From assembly GCA_964016885.1 (NCBI GenBank), contig OZ024742.1, positions 274,474,001-274,538,000 on the forward strand: DNA of 64,000 nucleotides, read 5' to 3'. This document shows positions 6,803 through 55,334 of this stretch, piece after piece. The notes under the pieces are model-generated. The model made no database searches, was not told the origin of the DNA, and saw nothing but the letters and a program-made list of their open reading frames with translations. Origin of the DNA: Eledone cirrhosa. Taxonomy: Eukaryota. The position numbers and the translations under genes were made by a program. Position 1 is the stretch's first letter. Every line of letters begins with the position of its first letter.

Positions 6803-7681
6803 CAATTGGTCTTTCGTGTGGTTGATTATGCTGATTGGGAGAGGAAATGGTGTATATATTTTATCAAATGATTCTATGGAATACTTTATTGTATATATAT
6901 ATAAATATATATATATATTTGTGAAAATATATATACATACGTATGTATGTATGTATACACATGTGTGTGTGTGTGTGTCTCATTATGGTGTACTTAACAC
7001 GAAAGTATAGTAACTGCTATTTAGCAAACACTATAATCGCTTTCAGTCCACCTTACTACCCGCCTGTAACCTCTGTATCATGTAGTAATTTCTTCTTCCG
7101 CCTTTTGAGATATTTTTCACTTCCTACAAGGGATTCAGTTCCCTTTCTTGACCGGTGTATCACGTGGTAATTTCTCCCTCCATCTTTTGAGATTTTCTCA
7201 CTTGCTACGAACCTGTCTGGAAATTATTTTTTCCCTGAGGAGTTCCTTGAAAAGCTGGTGTGCCTCACAACAATATTGCACATCTATAATTTTCAATGGT
7301 TGCAAACTGACCAGCGAAACTGTACAGTCGGCATTTTAAAGAAAAAATAGTTTTATATCTGTGTCTATTACTTCTTATTTTATAATTTGTTATATATATA
7401 AAACAAAGGAACGATCGACATTTGTCAAATCGGACCGACGAAACAATGTTTCCGTTGGTCTTTGCATTTGCTAATACTATCTATCGGTCGCAACTCCAGG
7501 TAGAAGAAGCAACGTGAAATAAAGTGTCTTCCTCAAGGACATAATGCATCGCCCTGTCCGTGAATCGAACACACAGCCTCAGGTTTTATATATATATATA
7601 TATATATATGTTTACAATCACACCGAGCATTATAATAAATTTTCGGGGAATCGATACGTACATGTGTATATGTGTGCATGG

Positions 7682-7690
<9 letters not shown>
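6803..7690 (+). repeat. ~0.9-kb duplicated composite module, copy 1
   Basis: Near-identical to 12876-13855; includes a SINE-like piece (~7510-7580) and ends in a piece of the 427-bp unit. Confidence 0.9.
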
Positions 7691-9083
<1,393 letters not shown>

Positions 9084-9136
9084 AATCAGGAAAGAAGGTT
9101 TACATGGTTTGCTATACAAAAAAGTTTTTAATCACT

Positions 9137-9246
9137 TAGCTTACATTTGTTTCACTGAACTGGTATGTCTAGAGATCGCTATCCGCTTAATTTTGCGTTA
9201 CTCGATCGCCAATACAGAATTATAACCAGTCAGATCTTCGGAGCAT
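9137..9246 (-). ncRNA. Type I hammerhead at the PLE1 3' end; ~80-nt stem II domain; core CCGAAGA
   Basis: GCT-CCGAAGA-TCTGACTGGT...ACCAGTTCAGT-GAAAC-AAAT-GTA-AGC. Confidence 0.7.
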
Positions 9247-9638
9247 GCGAGAATGTAGAAAATACACAGGCAAGAAAAGAATAGAAAATACGGCTACTAT
9301 ATGGAGTAGTTAGGGCATTCAATTAGAACAATAACAACAATTACAACAATGCTATCAATAAACTATTTAAGGAGACCCTGACATTACTTAGGTGGGGGGT
9401 ATATAATGTATCTAATGTTACGGCGTGAAAACCAGCTGTAATAAGGCAAAAAGTATCGAAGTGTGTATCAATTTTAAATTATAAAGATAAGCTAGTTTTT
9501 ACAGTCTTTCTCTTCATCTTCAACAATATACATGAGTGGGACCACTGTCAAAGCTCAATAGTTGTAGAGTTAATACAGAGGTTAACGAATTAATAAACGC
9601 ATATATCTACGCACACACACACACACACACATACACAT

Positions 9639-9671
<33 letters not shown>

Positions 9672-9999
9672 CACATATATACACATGCATGTGTATATAG
9701 ACACATACATACACATCAATATACACTCGTACAAAAATATACATACACGCAAAGAGAAAAGCGTGCTAATTGTAATTATGGCAAAAAGAAGGTAAAGTAA
9801 CATTGTACTAGTGAAATGAGAAAAACTAGGATCTAGGATCAAATGATTGCAGCAGCTGAGAAGGAGTAAGATTGTTGGTAGATGAGGTACTTACAGACAA
9901 TTGTGTGGTATAGACTTGTGAAGGAAATAGTATACTTAATGAATATATTTCTGTGGGTAGTAGGTATCCTAATTTAAAGCTATGTTATGTTGGTTCGAT

Positions 10000-11838
10000 T
10001 CACGGAGGTTTGAATCTTATGAATTTAGTGGCTATTCTATGTCTGCAGAAGATAGATCTTTCTAACTTATTATTAAGTAGCCTTTTAACATTTCTAAGGA
10101 TATACAATAGCTCAAGATCACACAGCCCGCAATAGGACATCCCTGTACTATAGGTTTTAGCAGCCGACAACTTCGACCAGTTGATAGTGTAGTTAGTGTT
10201 GCTGTCCTTCAATTCCCATATTTTTCTGGCGAGGGTGGATCCTATGTAATTCCAGGTGGAGTTACCCGAGATGACAGTGCACATGTACAACAGGCTCGAA
10301 TCGAGACATCTGTTCGCCAATGGGCACCTATCTGGGAGGTGACAGTTGCAGTTTGAGGCGCTATTTTGTGCAGCTTTTACATTCCTATTTAGTACCCTGT
10401 TATAAGTGGGTTGTGATATATGCCCAATGGGGTTTTGCTGCTGCGCGATTGTATGCGCTTGTGGTTGTGATGTTGTGATGAGTTTGTGCTTATGTATAGG
10501 TGCAATTGATTTACTTGAGATATTTCTGTGGTTGATCTTGCGTATGTGTGATTCTATGTTAGCTGCTGTTGAGAAAGAGAGTTTTATAGTAGATCTATTG
10601 AGTATTTTGTGATATCTATGCGAGATAGGGAAGTGTTTATCTATTAGTTTAAAGAATGTAGAGGGCAGTCTAGTTTTTATAGAGGAGTTGAATATTGGGT
10701 TGAACCATAGGTATTTTCTTTGTCTGTTTCTTCTATTGTTTCTAGGGTTTACGTTATTAGTGTTTTGGCCGCTTACTCTAGGTGTTACATGTCTAACCCT
10801 ATGTCTAGTCAAGCTATTCCTATTATTATGTGAGCGGTTGGAGTAGAAATTACTAGGATTGTTTATGTTGTCCTTATTCACTATATACTGTAGTTTATCT
10901 TTATGACCGGCCCTACTTAATGCTGCATTATAATAGTCAGCATGCTCGTTAAAGATTTCTAGGTTTGAGGATAAGCGGGATATTCGGAGGGATATACTAC
11001 GTGCTATGGATTTAATTATGGATTTGGGGTGATTTGAGTTGTAACTAATGTAGGCAAGATTTTCATTATTTTTGTGGAAAGGTTCTATTAATCCAGTATT
11101 TAGATTTAGAGTTACATCTAGAAAATTTACCTTCTTATGGTTTAGTTCGTAGGTAATACTTAGGCCTAGTTTTTTGAAGAATATTCTAATATTTTTCCTT
11201 AGTCTTTCCATGCTCTGGTTGTTTAGGTTCCTAGCTATAAGTAACGTGTCGTCCCTATAAATTCCTCCTTGGAGGTTACTGAATTCCTTATGTAGGTTGT
11301 GTGCTATGAATAGCCCCACGATATCTGTAATTTGTGCAGAATCATTTGATCCCATTGTAATATCGAAGCTATTTATTCTATCCTTTCTTACCCAGTAGTT
11401 ATTTTCAAATTTTACCATAGTCCTTCTAGCCGCTATTATTATTTCAATTTCATCATGGGTAAGATCAGAGTTATTTTGGGCAAATATAAGCGCCTTATCT
11501 AGGGTAGCTGGGGATATGGATGCATAATAGTCGTCTATATCAAATTGTATGAAGTTACACGTCTCCCTATTTTGTATTTTATTGAACCATTTAATTGCCT
11601 CGTTAGTGTTGCCCCATAAATTGATTTCTAGTTTACCCTTTATTTGTGCGATTACCCTATCTAGAATGTTTTTGCTAATTTTACCTATGTCTGACTTGGA
11701 TGGGCATATTAATCTAATGGTGGGATTAGTTTCAAAGTTATTTTTGTGATCGTTCAGGTTAAATGTAGGGTTGCACGGGGTAAGCGGTTCGGTCCTATCT
11801 GAAATTCCGAGTTTATTAACTATCTTGAGGCCGTCCAT
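10000..11838 (-). CDS. PLE RT + GIY-YIG polyprotein (612 aa; frame stays open upstream to ~11975; in-frame deletion in the endonuclease)
   Basis: FIQFDIDDYY, MGSNDSAQ, IYRDD, VNFLDVTL, SNHP, CNC..CPL..C, WNYIGST, CGLC. Confidence 0.9.
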   Translation of the reverse strand: MDGLKIVNKLGISDRTEPLTPCNPTFNLNDHKNNFETNPTIRLICPSKSDIGKISKNILDRVIAQIKGKLEINLWGNTNEAIKWFNKIQNRETCNFIQFDIDDYYASISPATLDKALIFAQNNSDLTHDEIEIIIAARRTMVKFENNYWVRKDRINSFDITMGSNDSAQITDIVGLFIAHNLHKEFSNLQGGIYRDDTLLIARNLNNQSMERLRKNIRIFFKKLGLSITYELNHKKVNFLDVTLNLNTGLIEPFHKNNENLAYISYNSNHPKSIIKSIARSISLRISRLSSNLEIFNEHADYYNAALSRAGHKDKLQYIVNKDNINNPSNFYSNRSHNNRNSLTRHRVRHVTPRVSGQNTNNVNPRNNRRNRQRKYLWFNPIFNSSIKTRLPSTFFKLIDKHFPISHRYHKILNRSTIKLSFSTAANIESHIRKINHRNISSKSIAPIHKHKLITTSQPQAHTIAQQQNPIGHISQPTYNRVLNRNVKAAQNSASNCNCHLPDRCPLANRCLDSSLLYMCTVISGNSTWNYIGSTLARKIWELKDSNTNYTINWSKLSAAKTYSTGMSYCGLCDLELLYILRNVKRLLNNKLERSIFCRHRIATKFIRFKPP

Positions 11839-11976
11839 GTTTATGCTGGTGAGTGTAGATTCATTTGTTTTTTTATATTTTTTATGTAGTTCACGCTGAA
11901 TAAAGTTATTGTATGTGTTAATGTCAATAGAGTATACGTTTGATGTTTTGTCTGCTTTTACTATGATACCGTTAGT

Positions 11977-12606
11977 GTTTGTTTACAAACACACCGAGCA
12001 TTATAATACATGTTCGGTAAATCCATACGTACATGTATATATGTGTGCATGTGTATATATAAATATACATACTACTGTACGTCTGTATACATATATGTAT
12101 GTAGGTATACATACTTATATTTAAGTAACAGCCGTACTAAGAGTGGGAAATGAAATTCCGTTTCATTATTTCCGTTTATCGTTTACGGTGCACCCGGCCG
12201 ATTAACCCACTCGATATGCAAATTGGGCTACTCAGCCGTTAATATGGATAAGGAAAGTATATACTTTCAGACGTTCAATCATCTGGCAGGAAGGTATACG
12301 TTGCTGACGATAGCTAATAAGCTTCAAACTAGTACAGCGTTCCTTTGTCAGTATTGAACAAACGAGCAACGATGGTTGCTAGACACTACGGCTTGATACG
12401 GGATGTTTTTTTACAAACACACCCAGCATTATAATAAATGTTCGGTGAATCCATACGTACATGTATATATGTGTGCATGTGTGTATATATATATACATAC
12501 TACTGTACGTCTGTATACATATATGTATGTGCGTATACATACCTATATTTAAGTAACAGCCCGTACTAAGAGTGGGAAATGAAATTTCGTTTCATTTTTT
12601 CCGTTT
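11977..12606 (+). repeat. 427-bp HHR repeat family, ~1.5 units; HHR at 12298-12340 has G12>C
   Basis: Matches the units at 19744-21412; reads CTTCAAAC instead of CTTGAAAC. Confidence 0.9.
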
Positions 12607-12621
12607 CTATATATATATATG

Positions 12622-12701
<80 letters not shown>

Positions 12702-12813
12702 GTATATATTTATATTTATTGAAATAACAGATGCTCTACGGTTCTTATATATTCGATATATATTCATCCTTATCGAGCCCTCTTTGGATTTTAGTCTTCA
12801 AATTTATTATTAT

Positions 12814-12875: not shown

Positions 12876-14645
<1,770 letters not shown>

Positions 14646-14648
14646 TTG

Positions 14649-15760: not shown

Positions 15761-16953
15761 CTATTTTTTTTTCTATTTTTTTTTTCTATTTTTTTTTATC
15801 ATTTTTTTTTTTTCTATCTTTTTTTTTTTTTTTTTTTAATCTTTTCGCAGCCAATCTTATAATTATATATTTGTACTAACTTATCCACAAGTTTTTTACA
15901 CCCTGTATCTATGTGTCTGAACGCCTTAATGTGTGTATACTTTCTATATATGTACACGAGTGCCTCCGCATGTGCGCGCGCGTGCGTGTATATATATATA
16001 TATATATGTGTATGTATATGTGTCTTTATATCCGTGTTTTTACATCTATGTTTTTTGTTTTGTTTTTTTCTTCTTCCTTTTTTTACATCCTCATTTTTAT
16101 GCGTGTGCATGCAAGCAGGTCAATATGCGTGAGTGTATGTATGTGTGTGTGTGTGTGTGTGTACGTACCGAATGTATGGATGTGTAAGTGTGCGTGTGTA
16201 TATAAGCATGTATATTTTTGTGTGTGTGTGTGTGTGTGCCAGTGTGTATACAGTCGCGTGCGTGCGCGTGATTAGATATACATGGGGCGAGGCGTATATG
16301 CGTATATATGTGCATCCTGTGTGTGTAGATGTGCTTGCATACGCTTTTGTCTGCACGTTTTTTGCGTGTATATATATATATTTCTTATAGTTATACGTTT
16401 CTTGTAGATATACGTGTGTATGTACGCGTGTACCTTGTTTGTCTTCTTTTCTTTAATTTTTTCTTTCTAAATTATTGTTCCATTTTTATAAATATATCGA
16501 GAATGATACTTTCTTTTAATTATTACACTCCCTTACCTCTTTTACTTCCGCATATAAGTGTACGTGCGTGTGGGTGTGTTTATACGCGTGCCTTCATATT
16601 CTTATAATGTATCTGTTACCCTATTTTTTTCTGTGTACCTGCCAAACAGAAAACCACATCATGTCTGTCTGTAGTTTACAGATACAGATATACTTGCCCT
16701 AACATATATATTTGCGCACACTTTTTCACTATACGTGTACATCTGTATATACACATATATGTACATCTGTGAGCGTATATACATACATATACAAACACCT
16801 AACTATATTTCTTGAAAGATTTTTATATATTTCATATGGCTATTGTAATTCATTTGTCTATATTTATATATATTTTTTTTTTTGCTTTTCTTGATGAGAC
16901 TTTCCAAGTATTTAGCCATGTTTTATATTGCCTCGTCTGACGAACGAATGAAG
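14711..16953 (+). mobile_element. Penelope-like element 2, 5'-truncated; same family as PLE5
   Basis: ORF to 15467 has WFTPPY, HFPRTHRYYKIFNR, YVGMT..FKTRY and CTLCINE; 3' UTR aligns with 32340-33580; stops inside its HHR. Confidence 0.9.
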
Positions 16954-18355
<1,402 letters not shown>

Positions 18356-18361
18356 TTTTAA

Positions 18362-18397
<36 letters not shown>

Positions 18398-18401
<4 letters not shown>

Positions 18402-18734
18402 AAGGAAAAGCGAAGTAGTTTCAGATGTTCAAGTCCTTTAATAATAATGCTGTGATATATATTTCAGTGACGACACTGGCCACACTTCTGTGTGCGAGTG
18501 TCGTGTCATCATCAGACAGCTTGTTACATAATAAGGTTATGTTTCCGAGGCAATCTAAATTGGATCGACATGGGAACGGATGAATTGCGTGTTTTGGGGT
18601 TTTTCATACGCTCCCTTGTGATGACACGACACTCGCACACAGAACAGTGTGGCCAGTGTCGTCACTGAAATATATATCACAGCATTATTATTAAAGGACT
18701 TGAACATCTGAAACTACTTCGCTTTTCCTTATTC
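18398..18734. repeat. Inverted repeat (~115-bp arms) of an HHR-bearing terminus
   Basis: 18398-18511 is the reverse complement of 18619-18734. Confidence 0.92.
18449..18520 (-). ncRNA. Type I hammerhead with long stem II
   Basis: GCTGT-CTGATGA-TGACACGACACT..AGTGTCGTCACT-GAAA-TATATA-TC-ACAGC. Confidence 0.85.
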
Positions 18735-19638
18735 GATATTTACTCCGTCACTCCTATGTGGAAAAAGTACGTTGAGTGCTTGAATTGAATTGCATCAATG
18801 TTTACCCTAATAATTTAGCTCCAATTAGTTGAGCGCTTTACGATGTAACTGATATGGTGGAGAAGAGAGGAACCAACCATAGGCTGCCCCGGAAATTCCC
18901 TCTACCATGGGGATGGAAACCCCTTACACTGGACGGACATAATAGTAACTTTCGGCAGGATAAATACGCGGAAACAAATAATAGGATAAACCCCTATTTT
19001 CCTGCACCAAATCGCATTTGAACAGAAGCCCCCTCAATTCAATCTATACATGGACAGATGGACAATCATATGGATTATTTTGCATATATGTACTCTGTTT
19101 TTTTTGCATTTATTCACTATTGGTTCTGTTCTTTTCTTTTGTGTAATTTATGTCTGTTTTTCTTTCGTTTTGTTCCATGTGATGGAAATTATGGCTGTGT
19201 ACCAGATTGACTAATGCCTAGAGCCCTGTAGTTTGCCCTCAGTTATAATGTACGGCACTGTCGTTCAATATGTGGATAGAGTAACTGTGACACTAGAATC
19301 CTTCTCATAATATATTACTTAAACATCTCTCTCCATATTATTTACTCACTTCAGTCTATATTTTTACTCACTTCAATCCGAATTATCACCTGAAAAGAAT
19401 TTGTTTAATTCTTTAATTTCTAATTGTTAATTTCTTAATTGTTTAATTTATAATTTCTGATATTTGATTTAGGATTTTAATTTTTATTTCCAACTCTCAC
19501 TCTTAACTTGTACGCTGAGTGCTTGAATTGAATTGCATCAATGTTTACCCTAATATATATATATATACATATATATATCTATATATATATATATATATAT
19601 ATATAAATATATATTAAAAAAAAATACATATATATATG

Positions 19639-19735
<97 letters not shown>

Positions 19736-19743
19736 GTATATAT

Positions 19744-21411
19744 ATGCAAATTGGGCTACTCACCCGTTAATATGCATAAGGAAAGTATATACTTTCAGAC
19801 GTTCAATCATCTGGCAGGAAGGTATACGTTGCTGACGATAGCTAATAAGCTTGAAACTAGTACAGCGTTCCTTTGTCAGAATTGAACAAACGAGCAACGG
19901 TGGTTGCTAGACACTTAGGCTTGATACGGGATATTGTTTACAAACACACCAAGCATTATAATAAATGTTCGGTGAATACATACGTATATGTATATATTGG
20001 TGCATGTGTGTTTATATATATACATAGTACTGTACGTCTGTATACATATATGTATGTACGTATACATACTTATATTTAAGTAACAGCCGTACTAAGAGTG
20101 AGAAATGAAATTTCGTTTCATTTTTTCCGTTTATCGTTTACGGTGCACCTGGCCGATTAACCCACACGATATGCAAATTGGGCTACTCAGCCGTTAATAT
20201 GCATAAGGAAAGTATATACTTTCAGACGTTCAATCATCTGGCAGGAAGATATACGTTGCTGACGATAGCTAATAAGCTTGAACCTAGTACAGCGTTCCTT
20301 TGTCAGTATTGAACAAATGAGCAACGATGGTTGCTAGACACTACCGCTTGATACGGGATGTTTGTTTACAAACACACCGAGCATTATAATAAATGTTCGG
20401 TGAATCCATACGTATATGTATATATGTGTGCATGTGTGTATATATATATACATACTACTGTACGTCTGTATACATATATGTATGTACGTATACATACTTA
20501 TATTTAAGTAACAGCCGTACTAATAGTGGGAAATGAAATTCCGTTTCATTTTTTCCGTTTATCGTTGTCAGTGCACCCGGCCGATTAACCCACTCGATAT
20601 GCAAATTGGGCTACTCAGCCGTTAATATGCATAAGGAAATTATATACTTTCAGACGTTCAATCATCTGGCAGCAAGGTATACGTTGCTGACGATAGCTAA
20701 TAAGCTTGAAACTAGTACAGCGTTCCTTTGTCAGAATTGAACAAACGAGCAACTATGGTTGCTAGACACATCGGCTTGATACGGGATTTTTGTTTACAAA
20801 CACAACAAGCATTATAATAAATGTTCGGTGAATCCATACGTACATGTATATATTGGTGCATGTGTGTTTATATATATACATACTACTGTACGTCTGTATA
20901 CATATATGTACGTATACATACTTATATTTAAATAACAGCCGTACTAAGAGTGGGAAATGAAATTTCGTTTCATTTTTTCCGTTTATCATTTACGGTGCAC
21001 CCGGCCGATTAACCCACTCGATATGCAAATTGGGCTACGCAGCCGTTAATATGCATAAGGAAAGTATATACATTCAGACGTTCAATCATCTGGCAGGAGG
21101 GTATACGTTGCTGACGATAGCTAATAAGCTTGAAACTAGTACAGCGTTCCTTTGTCAGAATTGAACAAACGAGCAACGATGGTTGCTAGACACTACGGCT
21201 TGATACGGGATGTTTGTTTACAAACACACCTAGCATTATAATAAATGTTCGGTGAATCCATACGTACATATATATATGTGTGCATGTGTGTGTCTATATA
21301 TACATACTACTGTACGTCTGTATACATATATGTATGTACGTATACATACTTATATTTAAGTAACAGCCGTACTAAGAGTGGGAAATGAAATTTCGTTTCA
21401 TTTTCTCCGTT

Positions 21412-21412
<1 letters not shown>
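19744..21412 (+). repeat. Tandem array of ~3.9 x 424-428-bp units with one HHR per unit (retrozyme-like)
   Basis: CTGACGA cores at 19832, 20259, 20687 and 21111; flanked by (TA)n. Confidence 0.95.
19826..19868 (+). ncRNA. Minimal type I hammerhead (also 20253-20295 mutated, 20681-20723, 21105-21147)
   Basis: ACGTTG-CTGACGA-tAGCT aata AGCTt-GAAAC-TA-GTA-CAGCGT; palindromic ACTAGT in stem III. Confidence 0.9.
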
Positions 21413-21443
<31 letters not shown>

Positions 21444-21448
21444 TAAAT

Positions 21449-21743
21449 TAAATTAATATTTGATGAACATTTACATGTTATAGTTGCAATTGACTAATAA
21501 GATCGCTAGAGTGAAAAATCTTAATTCAACAACATAAGGTCTGCCTGTACGATCTAGAGAATAATAAATCAATACTCACAGACTCATATGGGCAAAAAGC
21601 CCATATGAGTCTGTGAGTATTGATTTATTATTCTCTAGATCGTACAGGCAGACCTTATGTTGTTGAATTAAGATTTTTCACTCTAGCGATCTTATTAGTC
21701 AATTGCAACTATAACATGTAAATGTTCATCAAATATTAATTTA
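21449..21743. repeat. Perfect palindrome with 145-bp arms and a 5-nt loop
   Basis: 21449-21593 vs 21599-21743, loop AAAAA. Confidence 0.95.
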
Positions 21744-21880: not shown

Positions 21881-21888
<8 letters not shown>

Positions 21889-23722
21889 GTGTAAGGAATT
21901 CTTTTACAATGGAATTAGCTCGAAAGGAAATATTCCTGAGCCGTGTATAAAAGTAATATATATGAGTAATATATATGATGAAACAGATACCAACATATCT
22001 GTATTTATATTGCAAAAGAAAGTTAGCCAGACTGAAGAATATTAATTATTTTACCACAGTTCGTCCACATCGATTTAAAATAATAATAATAATAAATCGA
22101 CAAAAACTAGCTGTGCCGCCAAATGGCTATGATGTTTATACATATTTAAATTTCAAAGTTAAACCTGTTCAGTAGATAAGTTTAAACCTCAAAATCCAAA
22201 CATGTTTCGAGATGGATACGTGTATAAGTGTAGGAATATCTTGCCACTGCTCTCCTCAGTAAACATCCAGAGACAATTGATAAGCTTCACTTCTAAATAA
22301 TTTAAAAGACTGTGTGACGCACATGGGTTCACAGATTCAGGCTAGTCTCATAACCGTACTGCTAGAAATAACAGTCGTATATATGAGGCGAATTTTAGCT
22401 CGACGAAGAGCCGTTATATTAAGTGTAAGGAATTCTTTTACAATGGAATTAGCTCGAAAGGAAATATTCCTGAGCCGTGTATAAAAGTAATATATATGAG
22501 TAATATATATGATGAAACAGATACCAACATATCTGTATTTATATTGCAAAAGAAAGTTAGCCAGACTGAAGAATATTAATTATTTTACCACAGTTCGTCC
22601 ACATCGATTTAAAATAATAATAATAATAAATCGACAAAAACTAGCTGTGCCGCCAAATGGCTATGATGTTTATACATATTTAAATTTCAAAGTCAAACCT
22701 GTTCAGTAGTTAAGTTTAAACCTCAAAATCCAAACATGTTTCGAGATGGATACGTGTATAAGTGTAGGAATATCTTGCCACTGCTCTCCTCAGTAAACAT
22801 CCAGAGACAATTGATAAGCTTCACTTCTAAATAATTTAAAAGACTGTGTGACGCACATGGGTTCACAGATTCAGGCTAGTCTCATAACCGTACTGCTAGA
22901 AATAACAGTCGTATATATGAGGCGAATTTTAGCTCGACGAAGAGCCGTTATATTAAGTTTAAGGAATTCTTTTACAATGGAATTAGCTCGAAAGGAAATA
23001 TTCCTGAGCCGTGTATAAAAGTAATATATATGAGTAATATATATGATGAAACAGATACCAACATATCTGTATTTATATTGCAAAAGAAAGTTAGCCAGAC
23101 TGAAGAATATTAATTATTTTACCACAGTTCGTCCACATCGATTTAAAATAATAATAATAATAAATCGACAAAAACTAGCTGTGCCGCCAAATGGCTATGA
23201 TGTTTATACATATTTAAATTTCAAAGTCAAACCTGTTCAGTAGTTAAGTTTAAACCTCAAAATCCAAACATGTTTCGAGATGGATACGTGTATAAGTGTA
23301 GGAATATCTTGCCACTGCTCTCCTCAGTAAACATCCAGAGACAATTGATAAGCTTCACTTCTAAATAATTTAAAAGACTGTGTGACGCACATGGGTTCAC
23401 AGATTCAGGCTAGTCTCATAACCGTACTGCTAGAAATAACAGTCGTATATATGAGGCGAATTTTAGCTAGACGAAGAGCCGTTATATTAAGTGTAAGGAA
23501 TTCTTTTACAATGGAATTAGCTCGAAAGGAAATATTCCTGAGCCGTGTATAAAAGTAATATATATGAGTAATATATATGATGAAACAGATACCAACATAT
23601 CTGTATTTATATTGCAAAAGAAAGTTAGCCAGACTGAAGAATATTAATTATTTTACCACAGTTCGTCCACATCGATTTATAATAATAATAATAATAAATC
23701 GACAAAAACTAGCTGTGCCGCC
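21881..23722 (-). repeat. Tandem array of ~3.45 x 534-bp near-identical units with one HHR per unit
   Basis: Short ORFs recur every 534 bp; HHR cores at 22253, 22787 and 23321 (minus). Confidence 0.95.
22194..22264 (-). ncRNA. Type I hammerhead with extended stem II (also 22728-22798 and 23262-23332)
   Basis: GTTTA-CTGAGGA-GAG..TGG..GATA...TATC-CA-TCTC-GAAAC-AT-GTT-TGGAT; palindromic AAACATGTTT. Confidence 0.72.
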
Positions 23723-23732
23723 ATATTACTTT

Positions 23733-23763
<31 letters not shown>

Positions 23764-24043: not shown

Positions 24044-24057
24044 TATATATACATGTA

Positions 24058-24899
24058 TTAATAGGATATACGTTCCTTCACGCACAAGGCGCCAAGGTAC
24101 GCATGTATTGTCCAACCAAATGCCAGTGTGGTTCAATGGCGGGTTAATAAATTAACGAGCCAGAACAAATATAAACAAGGTTTAGCAAATAATGAAAAAG
24201 TTTCAAAATAAATTTTAAAAAATTGACTTTACCTACTATAGTTACCTTTACCGATCGGTTTCGAATCCCAAAAATAAAACGGAGACCATACGGCCCTCGT
24301 TGCAAAGAAAGATTCTCGTCAGAAGGTTCTTTTCGTTCAAAGAATATAAAATTCCTGAATTTAAATCACAAACTAGCGCTATCAAAACTGTTCCTGGGAT
24401 GAGAGTGGATGATGTAGAAACAGGTTTATCAAAGGCCGAAGCAAAGATAGAGGCAAAAGGAGGTAGGTCAAACTAGCCACAGCTATTGCTAGCAGCAGTC
24501 AGAACGACCAAATTTGTTCTCAACATTAGTGGAGGTAGTAGTAATAGGATATACGTTCCTTCACGCACAAGGCGCCAAGGTACGCATGTATTGTCCAACC
24601 AAATGCCAGTGTGGTTCAATGGCGGGTTAATAAATTAACGAGCCAGAACAAATATAAACAAGGTTTAGCAAATAATGAAAAAGTTTCAAAATAAATTTTA
24701 AAAAATTGACTTTACCTACTATAGTTACCTTTACCGATCGGTTTCGAATCCCCAAAATAAAACGGAGACCATACGGCCCTCGTTGCAAAGAAAGATTCTC
24801 GTCAGAAGGTTCTTTTCATTCAAAGAATATAAAATTCCTGAATTTAAATCACAAACTAACGCTATCAAAACTGTTCCTGGGATGAGAGTGGATGATGTA
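24058..24899 (-). repeat. Tandem 483-bp HHR repeat, ~1.75 units
   Basis: The sequence at 24060 recurs at 24543; one HHR per unit. Confidence 0.93.
24244..24327 (-). ncRNA. Type I hammerhead with a 53-nt stem II domain (also 24727-24810)
   Basis: ACCTT-CTGACGA-GAATC...GATTC-GAAAC-CGATCG-GTA-AAGGT; palindromic stem III. Confidence 0.88.
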
Positions 24900-25087
24900 A
24901 CATGTATATATACATACGGCTCTGTTTAATTACATTGAGCTATACCTTTTACTGTCATTTCTATAATACGAAGAGGGTGTTTTACTCCAACACGCTCCAG
25001 TATTTTAACCCTTGTCACTGCTCCCGATTGGTTGAGCTTCCTCATATATACTGGTATTTTGGCCTTTATATATATATATCTGACAGT

Positions 25088-27772
25088 ATGCTAACAAAGA
25101 GTTACCTGCCTTTATCTCTGAAGAATATTCCCACCCCCTCTAGGAATATTTACGAAAAACTACTGATAGCTAGTGTTAAATCCTTTGTAAAAAGGATTAG
25201 ATGGCGTGCTTTCCACTATGATAATAATAAGCATAGGAATGACCCCAGGAATAGAACAAATTTTAATAACTATGGCTTCAAAACTTATAAGAGCCCACCA
25301 CATAATATTTTATTAGACAGTTTTGAAAGTGACTTACTCTCTCTTGTCAAAAATATTAAGTATAAGCCAAATAATAGACATAGAAGTTATAATAAATTTG
25401 ATAAGTTCCAGTCTAGACTTAAAATATTGTTAAGGGTTTTGGTGAGAATAAGTCCATTCTTGTCCCGGCGGATAAGACTAAGAATCTATACTCCATGGAT
25501 TATAGTGCTTACCGTGACTTTATTTATAAGGAGCTATATAGAAATTATAAAAAAACTACGCTTGATAATTTAACCACATCAATAGTGAGGGTTTTAAAAT
25601 TGTCTCTGACCTCGGCCTCGATAAGTATACCCAGCCATATTACCCTCGAGAACTGAGATTCACTCTTAAGGATCATAAGGTTGATTTTATTAGTAACCCC
25701 TCTGTTAGACTCATCTGTCCTTCTAAGTCCGATATAGCCATTATCAGTAAAAAAATCCTTGACCTTATTATACCAGATGTTAGGGATAAAGTTAATTTTA
25801 ACCTATGTGGGAACACTAAGGAAGTTATAGATTGGTTCTCTGGGATTAATAGACTTGAATCTAATAAGTTTATCCAATTCGATATTGATGCCTACTACAC
25901 ATCAATTTCACCCATCCTCCTCAATAAAGCTTTAATGTTGGCCATGAGAGTGTCCAGCCTTACACGATCACAGGTAGATATTATACTAGCAGCCCGTAGA
26001 ACTATTATTAAATTTGAGGACACATTTTGGACCCGTAAAAACACGCCCAATAATTTCGACGTTACAATGGGCTCGAGTGATTCGGCCCAGGTAACTGATA
26101 TTGTTGGGTTGTTCCTCCTAAATGAACTATATGTTACCTTCCCGCACCTTGTAGGCGGACTATACCGTGATGATGCATTGTTTGTAATTAACTCTAGCAC
26201 CAACAATGTCGAGCATAATAAGAAGAAGCTTTATAAGTTTTTTAAAAGCTATAACCTTTCGATCACGATAGATAGAAATGATGGAGCGGTTAACTTTTTA
26301 GATGTGACTTTGGACTTGGTCACTAATAGTTTCAAACCCTTCCATGAGCCTAATGAAATACTTTCTTATGTTAGTCCCAATTCTAACCACCCCAAATCTA
26401 TGATAAACTCTATAATTAAGGGTGTATCTAATAGGATTTCCACACTCTCTAAGGACGTAGGAACATTTAATGAACATGCGGAGTACTATAATAATGCCCT
26501 AGCAAATTCCGGTTACTCTAGTAAAATACATTATAATAATAGTAACTTTAGAAAGTGTCCGCTTACATTTAATAATAATAACATAATATCACATAACATG
26601 GCCATGAATGGGAGTAGGAAGCATAATAACCGTAAAAATTGCATAGGTGTATCTGAACCCATCCATAAGCTAACCCACGGGACTCGTAATAGTGAATATA
26701 ATACCTCTAGGAAACAAGTCGAACCCTCTGAGCGCTCACTCATCGGTGATAATTTTGCTAGATCTTATTCAAATAATGTTGCTTCTACTGATACTATTAT
26801 TGGCCCTAATCCTTTTAGTGGGATTCCAGACAGCAGCAGATCTACTGGAGGTAGAAACAGTAATAGACTTAATGGAGTTTTGGCCGATTCTAATAATGCG
26901 GTTTTAACTAATCCTTGTAGTAACCCTAGTCTTGATGGTGGGATATTAGATAATGGTAGAGTCGGTAAGAATAAAAGTAGAAGGAGACTAAATACTTATT
27001 TTAACCCGCCATATAATCAGGAAGTATTAACTAATATCCCTAGGTCTTTCTTTTCTATCTTAGAGAAAAATTTCCCCCCTTCTCATAAATACCATAGTAT
27101 TTTTAATAAAAACGTTATTAAACTTTCATTCTCTACCACCCCTAATATTAGTTCTCATTTAGCTAGCACTAACAATAAGAAAATTAGGGATGGATTCTCC
27201 TCTCTACATACTACTAGTCTGAACAGATCTGGAAATGCCTTACCACCAGAACAGACCTTATCTAATAGCAATCCTACGGGTAATGCATCACCACTTGAGC
27301 CAACCAATAGCACCCGGAAGTGTAACTGTAGAGTGAGTGCTAACTGCCCTTTAAACTGTACTGCCTCTCTAAGAACATTGTCTATGCTTGCGTAGTTATA
27401 ACTAATTCCTCTAATAAAACTTATATAGGCTCTACATCTAACACTTTTAAGACTAGGTTTAATTCTCATATCTCTAATTTCAAACATTTTAAGTTTAAGA
27501 ATTCTACTTCTTTAGCACATTATATCTGGGATCTTAAGGGGGCTAATATATCATATAGCCTTAACTGGCGTTTAGTAGCATGCTCTAATAACCTTTCTAC
27601 AAATACTAAATTTTGTAATCTCTGTATCCTCGGGACACACTCTATAATTTTCTCTAGCGAATCCTTACTTAATAGAAAGTCTGAGATATTCTCTTCTTGT
27701 CCCCACGCTATTTCTAATTCTTACTTTTATTATAAACCTAAAGGTTCTAGTAGTATAAATTGTATCCATTAG
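25088..27772 (+). pseudogene. PLE4 RT-GIY-YIG ORF with ~3 frameshifts (near 25430, 25575 and 27355)
   Basis: Joined from ORFs 24902-25573 and 25935-27395 plus adjoining frames, by homology to the PLE1 protein. Confidence 0.85.
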
Positions 27773-29534
27773 CTGATATATTCCATTACTTATTTTTTAG
27801 TTTAGATTCTTTTTGTTTTTTGTTTACCACCATTATTATCATCATTATTATCATTGGTTTTTGACAACTCTTTATTCTAGCTCACATAATCTTTTGGCTA
27901 CTATACCATATCTATCTTCTTACGTATTAAATTTTCACTATTAACACCTTATGAGTATATATCTGATTATATATTTTACATTACTTTATTTTATTTCATT
28001 TTATTTTATTTTATTTTATTTTTATTTGGATTCTTCTTTGGGTACCCCCCCCTCCCACACACACACACACACCCTCCCCATGCGCATATAAACTTATTGT
28101 CAACCCCTCCAAATTGATTATGATTATATTTAATCCCCCCCCCCCTCTTTTACGCTCCTTTCTATTATTTAATATAGTATATGGACTATGATTTTATGCC
28201 CCCTTGTATCCTCCATATATTTCTTTATTTCTGTCCCTATTAGCCTACCATAATTCTGCTTAAGTCAGTTTTTTTAGATATCGTTATGTATTTGATAGTA
28301 AAAAATTTCATTCCTGTTTGTAAATATTTGTAATGAAATATTAACGTTTATAAACTTTGATTTCTTAAACCATAGCTAATATTGTATTGCCTTATTGGAT
28401 ATTTTAAGTATTTTTGAATATTAATTTATCAAATAGGGTTTTCGAGTCATTTACCGGGGTTATTTCCTAAGTTTTTACTTAACGGCATGTGAGACCTAAA
28501 TGTATACTTTTGTTTTTGTTTTTTAATTTACGGTTGATTCTATCTATTTATTTATTTTATTTTATTTTATTTGTAATACTACTGTGCTTTATATTTACTG
28601 TCTGGCCCTTACTCACTCATCCACATATATGTCTGTTTACCAACCTTGTAATTATAAGTAATTATATATTATATTATGTTAATTATTTTCTATTATATTG
28701 TATTTGCTATTGGACCATCGATCCTTATTACTTACCGTTGATTAAATGTAACAATGTGATATGTTAAACTTTATATACCATGTAAGATGTTTATATTTTT
28801 GTACCATCATAATTTTGGGTATTGTACAATTTATTTTCCTCACCTACTCTGTAACTCTATATGAATTGATTTGTTAACTTGAATGCCATTATATATTGTA
28901 TATTATATATGTTATTATATTATATTATTATTATAGTATTATTGTGACATCTATATTGTTTGTGTAAATTAACCGGAAACTATCTATTCTATTATATTAT
29001 ATTATATAGTATATAATTGTATAGCTTATTATATATTATATGTGCTACTTATAATAATATCATATTATTACCTCATGTATATTGGGTATATGTATTATTA
29101 TTATTATTATTATTATTATTTTTATTCCTATCATGCTTATTTATATTTAAACTCTTAATAAGGTTTAATTTGTGCTGTTGAAGATGGATATGTGTATTGA
29201 TGTATGTGTATATGTGCGTACGTGTGCGTACATATATACATATGTATATTGTACCTTTTGATTTTTATTGTAATTTTAATATTGGTAAAGGTATATTATA
29301 TTATATTATATTGTATATATAATACCTGCTCTATATAACCACCTTTGTTTAGCTCTAGGGTTTTTTTTGCTTTGGACTATATTTGTAATATGGTTCTAAA
29401 TGTTATACACCTTCTTAGTGATTTTTATTATATATTTTTACCCATAATCTTGCAATACTTTAGTGTATGTACACTCCATATTCTTCGGAGTTTCTGGCTT
29501 GTATTGGCCGATAATACTTCTTGTTGTTTTATTT

Positions 29535-29572
29535 GCCCTGACGAGTCCTTAACAGGACGAAACATTGTTGGC
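29535..29572 (+). ncRNA. Minimal type I hammerhead at the PLE4 3' end
   Basis: GCC-CTGACGA-GTCCT taac AGGAC-GAAAC-ATT-GTT-GGC. Confidence 0.9.
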
Positions 29573-29717
29573 TAATAAAGACTTTTGATGTATTGAAGGC
29601 TTCTTTGTTTTACTTTCATAAATATATATACATATATATATATAATTGGCTTTTGTGTGGTTGATTATGCTGATTGGGAGAGGAAATGGTTATCAAATGA
29701 TCCTATGGACATACTTT

Positions 29718-29856: not shown

Positions 29857-30485
29857 AAAAATTAGAATTGGAGCTTTGAAATAGCAATATATATATGGAT
29901 GTATGTATAATGTATTTTGCAATACAATTTATGCTTAATTAAAAGCATTTTGAAGACCGTATGCTATTGTTTTAGAGTAGTGACAAATTCACTTACTTTA
30001 ATCTCAGCAAACAGAGGAGATAAGCCGACAAGGCCTTGTTTCGCTTTTGTTGAAGCTTATCAAGGCTAACTACCCCTCCTGTCGACTGAGATTTCTGATG
30101 TTATATTCTTATAGAATTCTAGTAAATAATCAGGAACTGATTATACAGAGCGATTGTTCGTCAGGCAGAAATTAAAAATTAGAATTGGAGCTCTGAAATA
30201 GCAATATATATATGGATGTATATATAATGTATTTTGCAATAGACTTTATGCTTAATTAAAAGCATTTTGAAGACCGTATGCTATTGTTTTAGAGTAGTGA
30301 CAAATTCACTTACTTTAATCTCAGCAAACAGGGGAGATAAGCCGACAAGGCCTTGTTTCGCTTTTGTTGAAGCTTATCAAGGCTAAATACCCCTCCTGTC
30401 TACTGAGATTACTGATGTTATATTCTTATAGAATTCTAGTAAATAATCAGGAACTGATTATACAGAGCGATTGTTCGTCAGGCAG

Positions 30486-30503
<18 letters not shown>
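29857..30503 (-). repeat. Tandem 2 x 317-bp HHR repeat
   Basis: ATTAGAATT at 29861, 30178 and 30495; relatives at 37430-37850 and 54780-55120. Confidence 0.93.
30023..30067 (-). ncRNA. Type I hammerhead, U3:A8 core variant (also 30340-30384)
   Basis: AGCC-TTGATAA-GCTT caacaa AAGC-GAAAC-AAGGCCTT-GTC-GGCT. Confidence 0.82.
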
Positions 30504-33655
<3,152 letters not shown>

Positions 33656-34095: not shown

Positions 34096-34261
34096 ATATT
34101 TATTAAATAACAGATTCAAGTTTAAGCAAAGAATCGCTGCTTTCACCCCTAACAGGATCTTCTGAAACTAACAAATTGACTTTGTTAGTTTCAGAAGATC
34201 CCGTTAAGGGTGAAAGCAGCGATTCTTTGCTTAAACTTTGATCTGTTATTCAATAAATATT
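34096..34261. repeat. Fold-back with HHR-like motifs (core CAGAAGA) on both arms
   Basis: 34096-34175 vs 34181-34261; AGTTT-CAGAAGA-tCCC gttaa GGGt-GAAAGCAG..TTGCTT-AAACT. Confidence 0.8.
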
Positions 34262-54990: not shown

Positions 54991-55334
54991 TCTCTGTTGT
55001 TTCTTGCCGGAATAAGTAAGTGGCATAGTCACTACTTTAAAACTCATAGTGAATGGTCTTCAACATATTTTTAATTAAACATAGAGTATACTGCCAAATA
55101 TACTATAAATACATTCATATATATATATATATATATGAAAAACCACAGACCCTCCATTTCAACTCTACTTTTGAAAAGCAGAAGAACTGCGAAACCGATA
55201 AAGGAACAAAATAAATATATATATATTTTTTTTAAATAAGAGACCAGTTGCATTTTCGATTTCATCTTTTTTTCTTTATACTTTCACTCGTGTAGGACAC
55301 CTCGGTTATTTTTCATTTTGTAAAAAAACCTCAC

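Follow-up and report, generated by a model that had tools for sequence, protein, structure and literature searches.

The 428-bp units that are repeated in tandem at positions 19742 to 21414 (+ strand) of the window, the stretch of 64,000 nucleotides of Eledone cirrhosa DNA that was analyzed here, are very probably a non-autonomous retroelement that belongs with the animal non-LTR retrozymes and that would have been mobilized by a Penelope-like element (PLE) through an internal start and thereafter have decayed neutrally. The array is a real and ordinary animal non-LTR retrozyme, and its dimer-type hammerhead is of the textbook kind. The new observation is that a retrozyme copy is fused head-to-head, without any spacer, to a non-homologous PLE of the Hydra type, an arrangement that was seen twice in the window.

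Structure of the Tandem Array

The window consists of AT-rich, microsatellite-rich eukaryotic DNA with 71 tracts of at least 10 TA units, and it contains several PLE open reading frames and fragments thereof. An earlier note on this sequence had described a 427-bp array, and Tandem Repeats Finder identified 3.9 copies with a period of 428 bp and 94% matches at this position, composed of units of 424 to 428 bp with core-to-core spacings of 427, 428, and 424 bp. The array is bordered on both sides by (TA)n tracts, located at 19553 to 19745 and 21412 to 21445, which represent the target, and because both flanks consist of (TA)n, a target-site duplication is unreadable there. The GC content is 37% (unit 2), and the longest ATG frames in this unit span only 49 amino acids on the + strand and 53 amino acids on the − strand, which rules out a coding role. 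No LTR layout was seen in the array sequence. A segment of 36 to 39 nucleotides (+ strand, 20133 to 20171) was present at the internal unit junctions only, both 3′ ends and the stretch preceding the array being free of it.

Animal non-LTR retrozymes have been described as tandemly repeated, noncoding units of 150 to 450 bp with a GC content below 50%, each with a type I hammerhead, and with at least 2 consecutive complete units (PMC7229834, 10.64898/2026.07.22.740005). The array has all of these features, including the consecutive intact pair, and its unit size is near the top of the range given in PMC7229834. The same 2 sources also describe a self-paired predicted circle and the co-occurrence of PLEs, the latter of which is seen here as well. 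The predicted monomer circles were 60% to 69% paired, and when compared with 40 shuffles each, the z-scores of the folding energies were −5.5, −8.3, and −2.6 for the + strand and −4.2, −4.3, and −3.3 for the − strand. Since the − strand circles also folded below their shuffles, the self-pairing is only weakly strand-specific. The element described here differs from the published retrozymes by the fixed 3′ end in (TA)n and by the fusion to a non-homologous PLE.

An alternative is that unequal exchange or slippage multiplied 1 or 2 inserted units on site into the array, in which case the layout would be uninformative about RNA intermediates. Satellite growth from a PLE terminus has been proposed (10.64898/2026.07.22.740005), and some alleles are common to non-adjacent units, with 3 alignment columns, 2 of them adjacent, being shared by units 1 and 3. 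However, the 4 units are no more similar to each other (14 to 20 mismatches per approximately 389 nucleotides in 6 pairs) than to a copy located 7.5 kb away (13 to 19 mismatches per approximately 389 nucleotides in 4 pairs). The second locus is itself longer than one unit and has an identical 3′ end position, and we consider growth in place to be doubtful. A clean two-unit higher-order repeat was also considered and found to be unsupported because the shared columns conflict: 3 further columns are shared by unit 2 and the copy at the second locus in 2 cases, and by units 1 and 2 in one case.

Anatomy of the Hammerhead Ribozyme

A type I hammerhead was identified in all 4 array units, at positions 19811 to 19879, 20238 to 20306, 20666 to 20734, and 21090 to 21158 (+ strand). 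The CTGACGA cores that the earlier note had placed at 19832, 20259, 20687, and 21111 were all recovered, and the core was intact in 3 of the 4 units, with units 3 and 4 being both intact and consecutive. The previously described stems were likewise confirmed with a type I descriptor: helix I consists of 6 bp, one of which is a G.U pair, the 4 bp of helix II (AGCT/AGCT) lie over a U.U mismatch, and helix III is formed by ACTAGT, a perfect palindrome. The cut sites predicted by the descriptor, after 19862, 20717, and 21141 in units 1, 3, and 4, respectively, were the same as those suggested before. The descriptor recovered 3 of the 5 copies, and both of the missed copies contain mutations (at 20283 and 12325). 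With strict settings there were 3 matches in the window, representing three copies of one motif, versus none in 100 block-shuffled windows, and the motif is not a chance occurrence.

The ribozyme is a canonical animal type I hammerhead and not a minimal one, as had been claimed. In the predicted folds of all 5 copies, helix I extends past an internal loop by about 10 more pairs. Furthermore, the hammerhead in unit 3 aligned to all 77 positions of the Rfam model Hammerhead_HH9 (RF02275) with a score of 24.8 bits, which is below the gathering threshold of 52, and with an E-value of 1.6e-4 that refers to a search of a 121-base stretch, unit 3 not being listed at E ≤ 1 in the whole-window search. 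The 6-bp helix I, the internal loop, and the 6-nucleotide loop 2 were in register with the model, and the sizes of loops 1 and 2 agreed with it, but the helix III loop of the model is missing here. The whole-window Rfam search yielded 125 matches, nearly all of which were to microRNA models on TA/CA runs and all of which were below the gathering thresholds; these were dismissed as composition artefacts.

Most animal type I hammerheads are reported to have a helix I of 6 bp, a helix II of 4 bp, and a helix III of 1 to 2 bp with a palindromic loop of 2 to 4 nucleotides (PMC4209133). The hammerhead in the array has these dimensions, along with the extended helix I and internal loop 1. The minimal PLE hammerheads described in the same paper are similar in that helix III is palindromic and that they are proposed to act as dimers, but they have a short helix I (4 to 5 bp), a long helix II (7 to 8 bp), and a poorly defined loop 1, none of which was observed here. 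The hammerhead is also close to the motifs of newt satellite 2 and of the axolotl: a helix III that can be reduced to one pair and a palindromic tetraloop is found in HHR_Amex1, and in HHR_Amex2 the base of helix II has a U.U mismatch (PMC7229834). The hammerhead studied here differs from these motifs by joining the traits of Amex1 and Amex2, by having a GUA cut site, and by its apparently invertebrate host; by analogy, dimer-enhanced cleavage would be expected here as well.

Dimer Formation

It had been argued in the earlier note that the hammerhead should fold only as a double hammerhead between 2 units, and that this provides a functional reason for the tandem layout. A double hammerhead is indeed plausible, and in the model published for motifs of this kind the palindromic helix III pairs across 2 units, the dimer fold being possible for animal type I hammerheads that are arranged in tandem (PMC4209133). 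That the tandem layout allows neighboring ribozymes to dimerize is also stated in PMC6765202, where the idea is traced to work from 1988. The proposed reason is already known, and its obligatory form is overstated.

In the strong form, the hammerhead would work only as a double, the tandem layout would be kept for its function, and the active and dead cores would be a meaningful mix. This is compatible with the palindromic helix III, the 2-nucleotide loop of which is unable to close, and with the predicted energies for oligonucleotides of 43 nucleotides, which were −19.4 kcal/mol for the double hammerhead versus −1.3 kcal/mol for each monomer closed by one helix III pair. The monomer without this pair reached −6.7 kcal/mol, and the best dimer (−20.7 kcal/mol) was inactive. 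The axolotl motifs, with a similar helix III of 1 to 2 bp, were cut to 6% to 22% in 1 h when alone and much better when dimeric (PMC7229834), and the 3 columns common to units 1 and 3 hint weakly at a template of two units. However, the other shared columns are at odds with a clean two-unit repeat, and the full-context predictions were less favorable. For a transcript of 601 nucleotides with cores 3 and 4, the energies were −167.4 kcal/mol for the free fold, −160.6 kcal/mol with one active monomer, −157.4 kcal/mol for the double hammerhead, and −153.8 kcal/mol with 2 active monomers, which places the double form only 3.6 kcal/mol below 2 monomers and 3.2 kcal/mol above one. The probability of inter-unit helix III pairing in this transcript was 0.000, and in the predicted ground state a pairing of the core's CUG to the UAG in helix III blocked the core (P 0.71 to 0.90). 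This inactive fold within the unit is favored by the model and would keep the ribozyme off. Because nearest-neighbor energies leave out tertiary contacts and kinetics, folding neither proves nor excludes that the hammerheads act as dimers.

The published cleavage data are mixed: the hammerheads of coral and mussel retrozymes cut as single copies (PMC7229834), and 8 of 9 Xenopus dimers remained uncleaved (10.64898/2026.07.22.740005). It also counts against the strong form that hammerhead cleavage was dispensable for insertion in an assay with PLE protein (PMC11167929) and that substitutions were not depleted in the ribozyme (see below). We think that cleavage is probably enhanced by dimerization; strict dependence on the dimer is rated lower, and the strong form as a whole seems improbable. 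According to the established model of the double hammerhead, the cut at either site is made by the core of the partner. The site after 20289 in unit 2 should therefore also be cut if the units dimerize, because the intact core of a neighbor would act there, and this site was lacking in the earlier list of the 3 cuts after 19862, 20717, and 21141.

Mutations in the Core and in the Unit Hairpin

The change from GAAAC to GAACC that had been noticed in unit 2 corresponds to A15.1C at 20283, and the GTA site of this unit is intact. The fifth copy contains the G12C change reported previously, at 12325, but its core starts at 12304, whereas 12298 is the start of helix I. The labels G12 and A15.1 follow the standard hammerhead numbering. 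Intact and mutated cores consequently coexist, but the mix fits neutral decay. A total of 35 singleton substitutions was identified over 387 columns in the five copies, 2 of which were located in the 12 columns of the core, corresponding to 3.3% per site and copy versus 1.9% outside the ribozyme (p = 0.30). Selection on the ribozyme as a whole was not seen, with 5 of the 35 singletons in 69 columns (p = 0.82), although five copies provide little power. Since mutations in the core are about as frequent as in the background, the dead cores look like the result of neutral decay after insertion, which is the best explanation for their presence.

Each unit had also been described as containing a hairpin. 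An exact hairpin of 11 bp was found at 20375 to 20402 (+ strand) in unit 2 only, that is, in one of 4 array units and in one of the 6 copies examined, with weakened versions starting at 19947, 20803, and 21227. The other 5 copies contained unpaired changes and no compensatory changes, and the predicted hairpin was weakened from −14.7 kcal/mol to between −11.5 and −3.2 kcal/mol. No selection on this hairpin was seen among the 6 copies, again with little power.

A Second Locus and a Fixed 3′ End

A second locus of the 428-bp family was identified at 11976 to 12606 (+ strand). It contains 1.5 units, including the fifth copy of the hammerhead (core at 12304), is truncated at the 5′ end, and is followed by a (TA)n tract at 12608 to 12719. 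The 3′ ends of both loci fall within 2 nucleotides of the same position in the unit, 273 nucleotides downstream of the ribozyme cut and directly after a hairpin (21380 to 21409, + strand, in the array), and are then followed by (TA)n. The hairpin is a candidate signal for an internal start of reverse transcription. Purified PLE protein has been reported to begin reverse transcription at internal stem-loop sites and to nick both strands of AT-rich DNA, with no need for hammerhead cleavage (PMC11167929), and a fixed 3′ end far past the cut is, by analogy, what would be expected for internal initiation by such a protein. Two other hammerhead repeats, of 477 bp (14017 to 14647, − strand) and 483 bp (24055 to 24899, − strand, cores at 24805 and 24322), are 78% identical and share the position at which they run into (TA)n at the 3′ end, 188 and 194 nucleotides past their respective cut sites. 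The hammerheads in both of these repeats have a long insert in helix II.

Two direct copies of a block of 880 bp, at 6803 to 7690 and 12877 to 13853, flank the second locus and the PLE to which it is fused. They align with 853 matches, 20 mismatches, and one insert of 97 nucleotides, and are either copies of a dispersed repeat or a target duplication of unusual length between 2 TA tracts. Pieces of 85 bp at 7609 to 7690 and 13772 to 13854 are about 81% to 83% similar to the middle of the 428-bp unit; they start within 4 nucleotides of the truncation point of the second locus and end at the internal TA run of the unit, and may represent a subfamily of greater age or a module that was captured.

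Neighboring Penelope-like Elements

The second locus adjoins PLE-A (9086 to 11982, − strand), a 5′-truncated element with an open frame of 660 amino acids (10000 to 11982) and with a different hammerhead-like motif of its own (core at 9241, with a U4C change), located 56 nucleotides upstream of its 3′ end, which lies at (TA)n. PLE-B (24896 to 29619, + strand) is frameshifted and has its own hammerhead (core at 29538) located 50 nucleotides before the 3′ end. A 3′ region of 1.8 kb that is AT-rich separates the open reading frame of PLE-B from the hammerhead, and an asparagine-rich stretch lies between the reverse transcriptase and the endonuclease, as in rotifer Penelopes (PMC3846280).

The hallmarks of the Hydra clade are DKT, an RWK-like motif, CxCx5C, CxxC, CxH, as well as a GIY-YIG domain at the C terminus, and members of this clade nearly always insert into (TA)n (Craig et al. 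2021, PMC8557442). The open reading frames of PLE-A and PLE-B contain DKT, RWRA, CxCx5C, CxxC, and CxH, with RWRA present in PLE-B only since PLE-A is truncated. Pfam named 2 of 9 open reading frames, one of which was assigned a GIY-YIG domain and another a zf-RVT domain, and Atlas neighbors carry HTH_animal, GIY-YIG, and RVT_1 domains. Judged by the motifs, the 3′ hammerhead, and the (TA)n target, both elements appear to be of the Hydra type. The match to zf-RVT is to a frame of 453 amino acids at 1254 to 2615 (− strand), which forms the 3′ portion of a LINE-like element. Another segment, at 16849 to 17700, was by eye the GIY-YIG-like end of an element resembling Penelope/Poseidon.

No nucleotide similarity was found between the 428-bp unit and the bodies of the 4 PLEs in the window (blastn, E < 0.05), and the array is therefore not a pLTR that belongs to PLE-A, B, C, or D. 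Because of this lack of similarity, the sequence of the unit does not point to a partner PLE family. The unit could still be the terminus, either a pLTR or the 3′ end, of some autonomous PLE family located outside the window, in which case the 2 loci would be truncated and tandemized ends of such an element. PLEs are known to insert as truncated partial tandems with an optional tail of 30 to 40 bp (PMC8557442, PMC11167929), which resembles the segment of 36 to 39 nucleotides at the unit junctions, and retrozymes have been proposed to be derived from pLTRs (10.64898/2026.07.22.740005). This is made less likely by the 4 full units in a row without open reading frames, by the absence of a match to the PLEs in the window, and by the position of the 3′ end: the 2 PLEs with intact 3′ ends stop at 50 and 56 nucleotides past the ribozyme, compared to 273 nucleotides in the array. 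Moreover, the extended canonical hammerhead is of the retrozyme type, and the PLE variants are described as usually lacking it (PMC7761336). We regard an origin as a PLE terminus as quite improbable.

Head-to-Head Fusions with PLE-A and PLE-B

At its 5′ end, the second locus adjoins the truncated 5′ end of PLE-A head-to-head and without a spacer, with an overlap of up to 7 nucleotides between the locus, which starts at 11976, and PLE-A, which extends to 11982. A hairpin with arms of 7 to 8 bp, most of which is part of the repeat unit, is located at this junction (11975 to 11992). The 5′ end of the 483-bp repeat is fused to PLE-B in the same manner, and the junction is TA-rich. Both composites (9086 to 12606 and 24055 to 29619) are bounded by (TA)n at their two 3′ ends. 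A short hairpin or palindrome was found at or within 3 nucleotides of both junctions, as compared with 75 of 2000 random windows of 41 nucleotides.

PLE insertions often carry an inverted, 5′-truncated copy in a head-to-head orientation with a palindrome at the join (PMC8557442, PMC3846280). The composites resemble such Hydra-clade insertions in the (TA)n target, the 3′ hammerhead, and the palindromic head-to-head junction, but the inverted copy there is described as being of the same element, whereas here its place is taken by a non-homologous hammerhead repeat. No published heterologous fusion of a retrozyme and a PLE was recognized in a literature search that missed most subscription papers and the supplements of 10.64898/2026.07.22.740005.

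A tentative explanation, to which we give somewhat less than an even chance, is that one and the same insertion event, carried out by Hydra enzymes, introduces both the RNA of the Hydra element and that of an unrelated retrozyme. One RNA would be primed on each strand of the (TA)n target, and the 2 cDNA ends would be joined head-to-head. This reading is drawn from the assembled sequence of one window. The chances are about balanced that the junctions have instead arisen because both kinds of elements pile up in (TA)n, and that the intervening TA was lost, either through a subsequent deletion or through misassembly. The 71 TA tracts and the many stacked fragments in the window would favor such accumulation, and the 5′ end of the main array is located on (TA)n without a PLE. 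In a third case, the 477-bp repeat and PLE-C face each other across a TA spacer of 65 bp, and the 317-bp repeat described below is separated from PLE-D by approximately 0.6 kb with fold-back pieces; the long perfect palindromes nearby could be artefacts. On the other hand, the same spacer-free geometry was observed for 2 independent pairs of families, and each of the junctions shows a short palindrome or hairpin, as in the inverted junctions of PLEs (PMC3846280). In addition, all 4 of the Hydra-type 5′ ends have a hammerhead repeat on the opposite strand at most about 0.6 kb upstream, although these cases are not fully independent.

Other Repeats in the Window

To the right of the array, a repeat of 534 bp is present in 3.5 copies at 21881 to 23753 (− strand), with 96% to 99% identity and a 3′ end at (TA)n. 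Its hammerhead-like motifs (cores at 23327, 22793, and 22259) have an ACATGT palindrome and a weak, wobble-rich helix I. The repeat of 317 bp (29857 to 30503, − strand) is present in 2 copies, each with a type I hammerhead (cores at 30380 and 30063) in which C3 and G8 are replaced by U3 and A8, with a palindromic helix III of 12 nucleotides, a GTC site, and weak matches to Rfam HH9. A covariation of U3 and A8 is described in PMC4209133. A possible core of this type was also located at 55171 (+ strand), within a dispersed relative of the 317-bp repeat, and a hammerhead-like motif with a helix I of 10 bp and a U4C change in the core was located at 33561 (+ strand). Long, near-perfect palindromes (81% to 98%) were identified at 21449 to 21743, 30486 to 30730, 30731 to 31232, 18390 to 18742, and 34096 to 34260. 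Some of these are centered on TA tracts and involve pieces of PLE-D, and they arose either by fold-back during PLE insertion or as assembly artefacts.

Proposed Mode of Movement and Implications

We suggest that read-through transcripts of the array would be cut by the type I hammerhead, probably better with 2 units pairing through helix III, and that this may yield RNAs of unit length that can be circularized, as in the retrozyme family. The TA tract would be nicked by a (TA)n-targeting PLE with a reverse transcriptase and a GIY-YIG endonuclease, most likely of the Hydra clade, and reverse transcription would start at a fixed internal point about 270 nucleotides downstream of the ribozyme cut, such that one to several units might be copied in each insertion. 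The inserted copies would then decay neutrally. Hydra enzymes appear to be the likeliest movers because the neighboring elements have the Hydra marks, because this clade inserts into (TA)n, and because initiation was internal in the assay with PLE protein. Against this attribution, Naiad and Neptune are other (TA)n-targeting PLEs that could have donated the enzyme.

Which autonomous element mobilizes animal retrozymes is a question in the field, and PLEs are proposed only as the likely movers, based on co-occurrence and pLTR homology, in 10.64898/2026.07.22.740005, PMC7229834, and PMC7761336. If the interpretation presented here is correct, the composites at 9086 to 12606 and 24055 to 29619 would be direct genomic records that name the mobilizing enzyme with no need for shared sequence, and copying would start at a fixed internal site rather than at the ribozyme cut. 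The spacer-free fusions of retrozymes with Hydra-type elements, together with the distant fixed 3′ end, would make the question of the mover directly testable.
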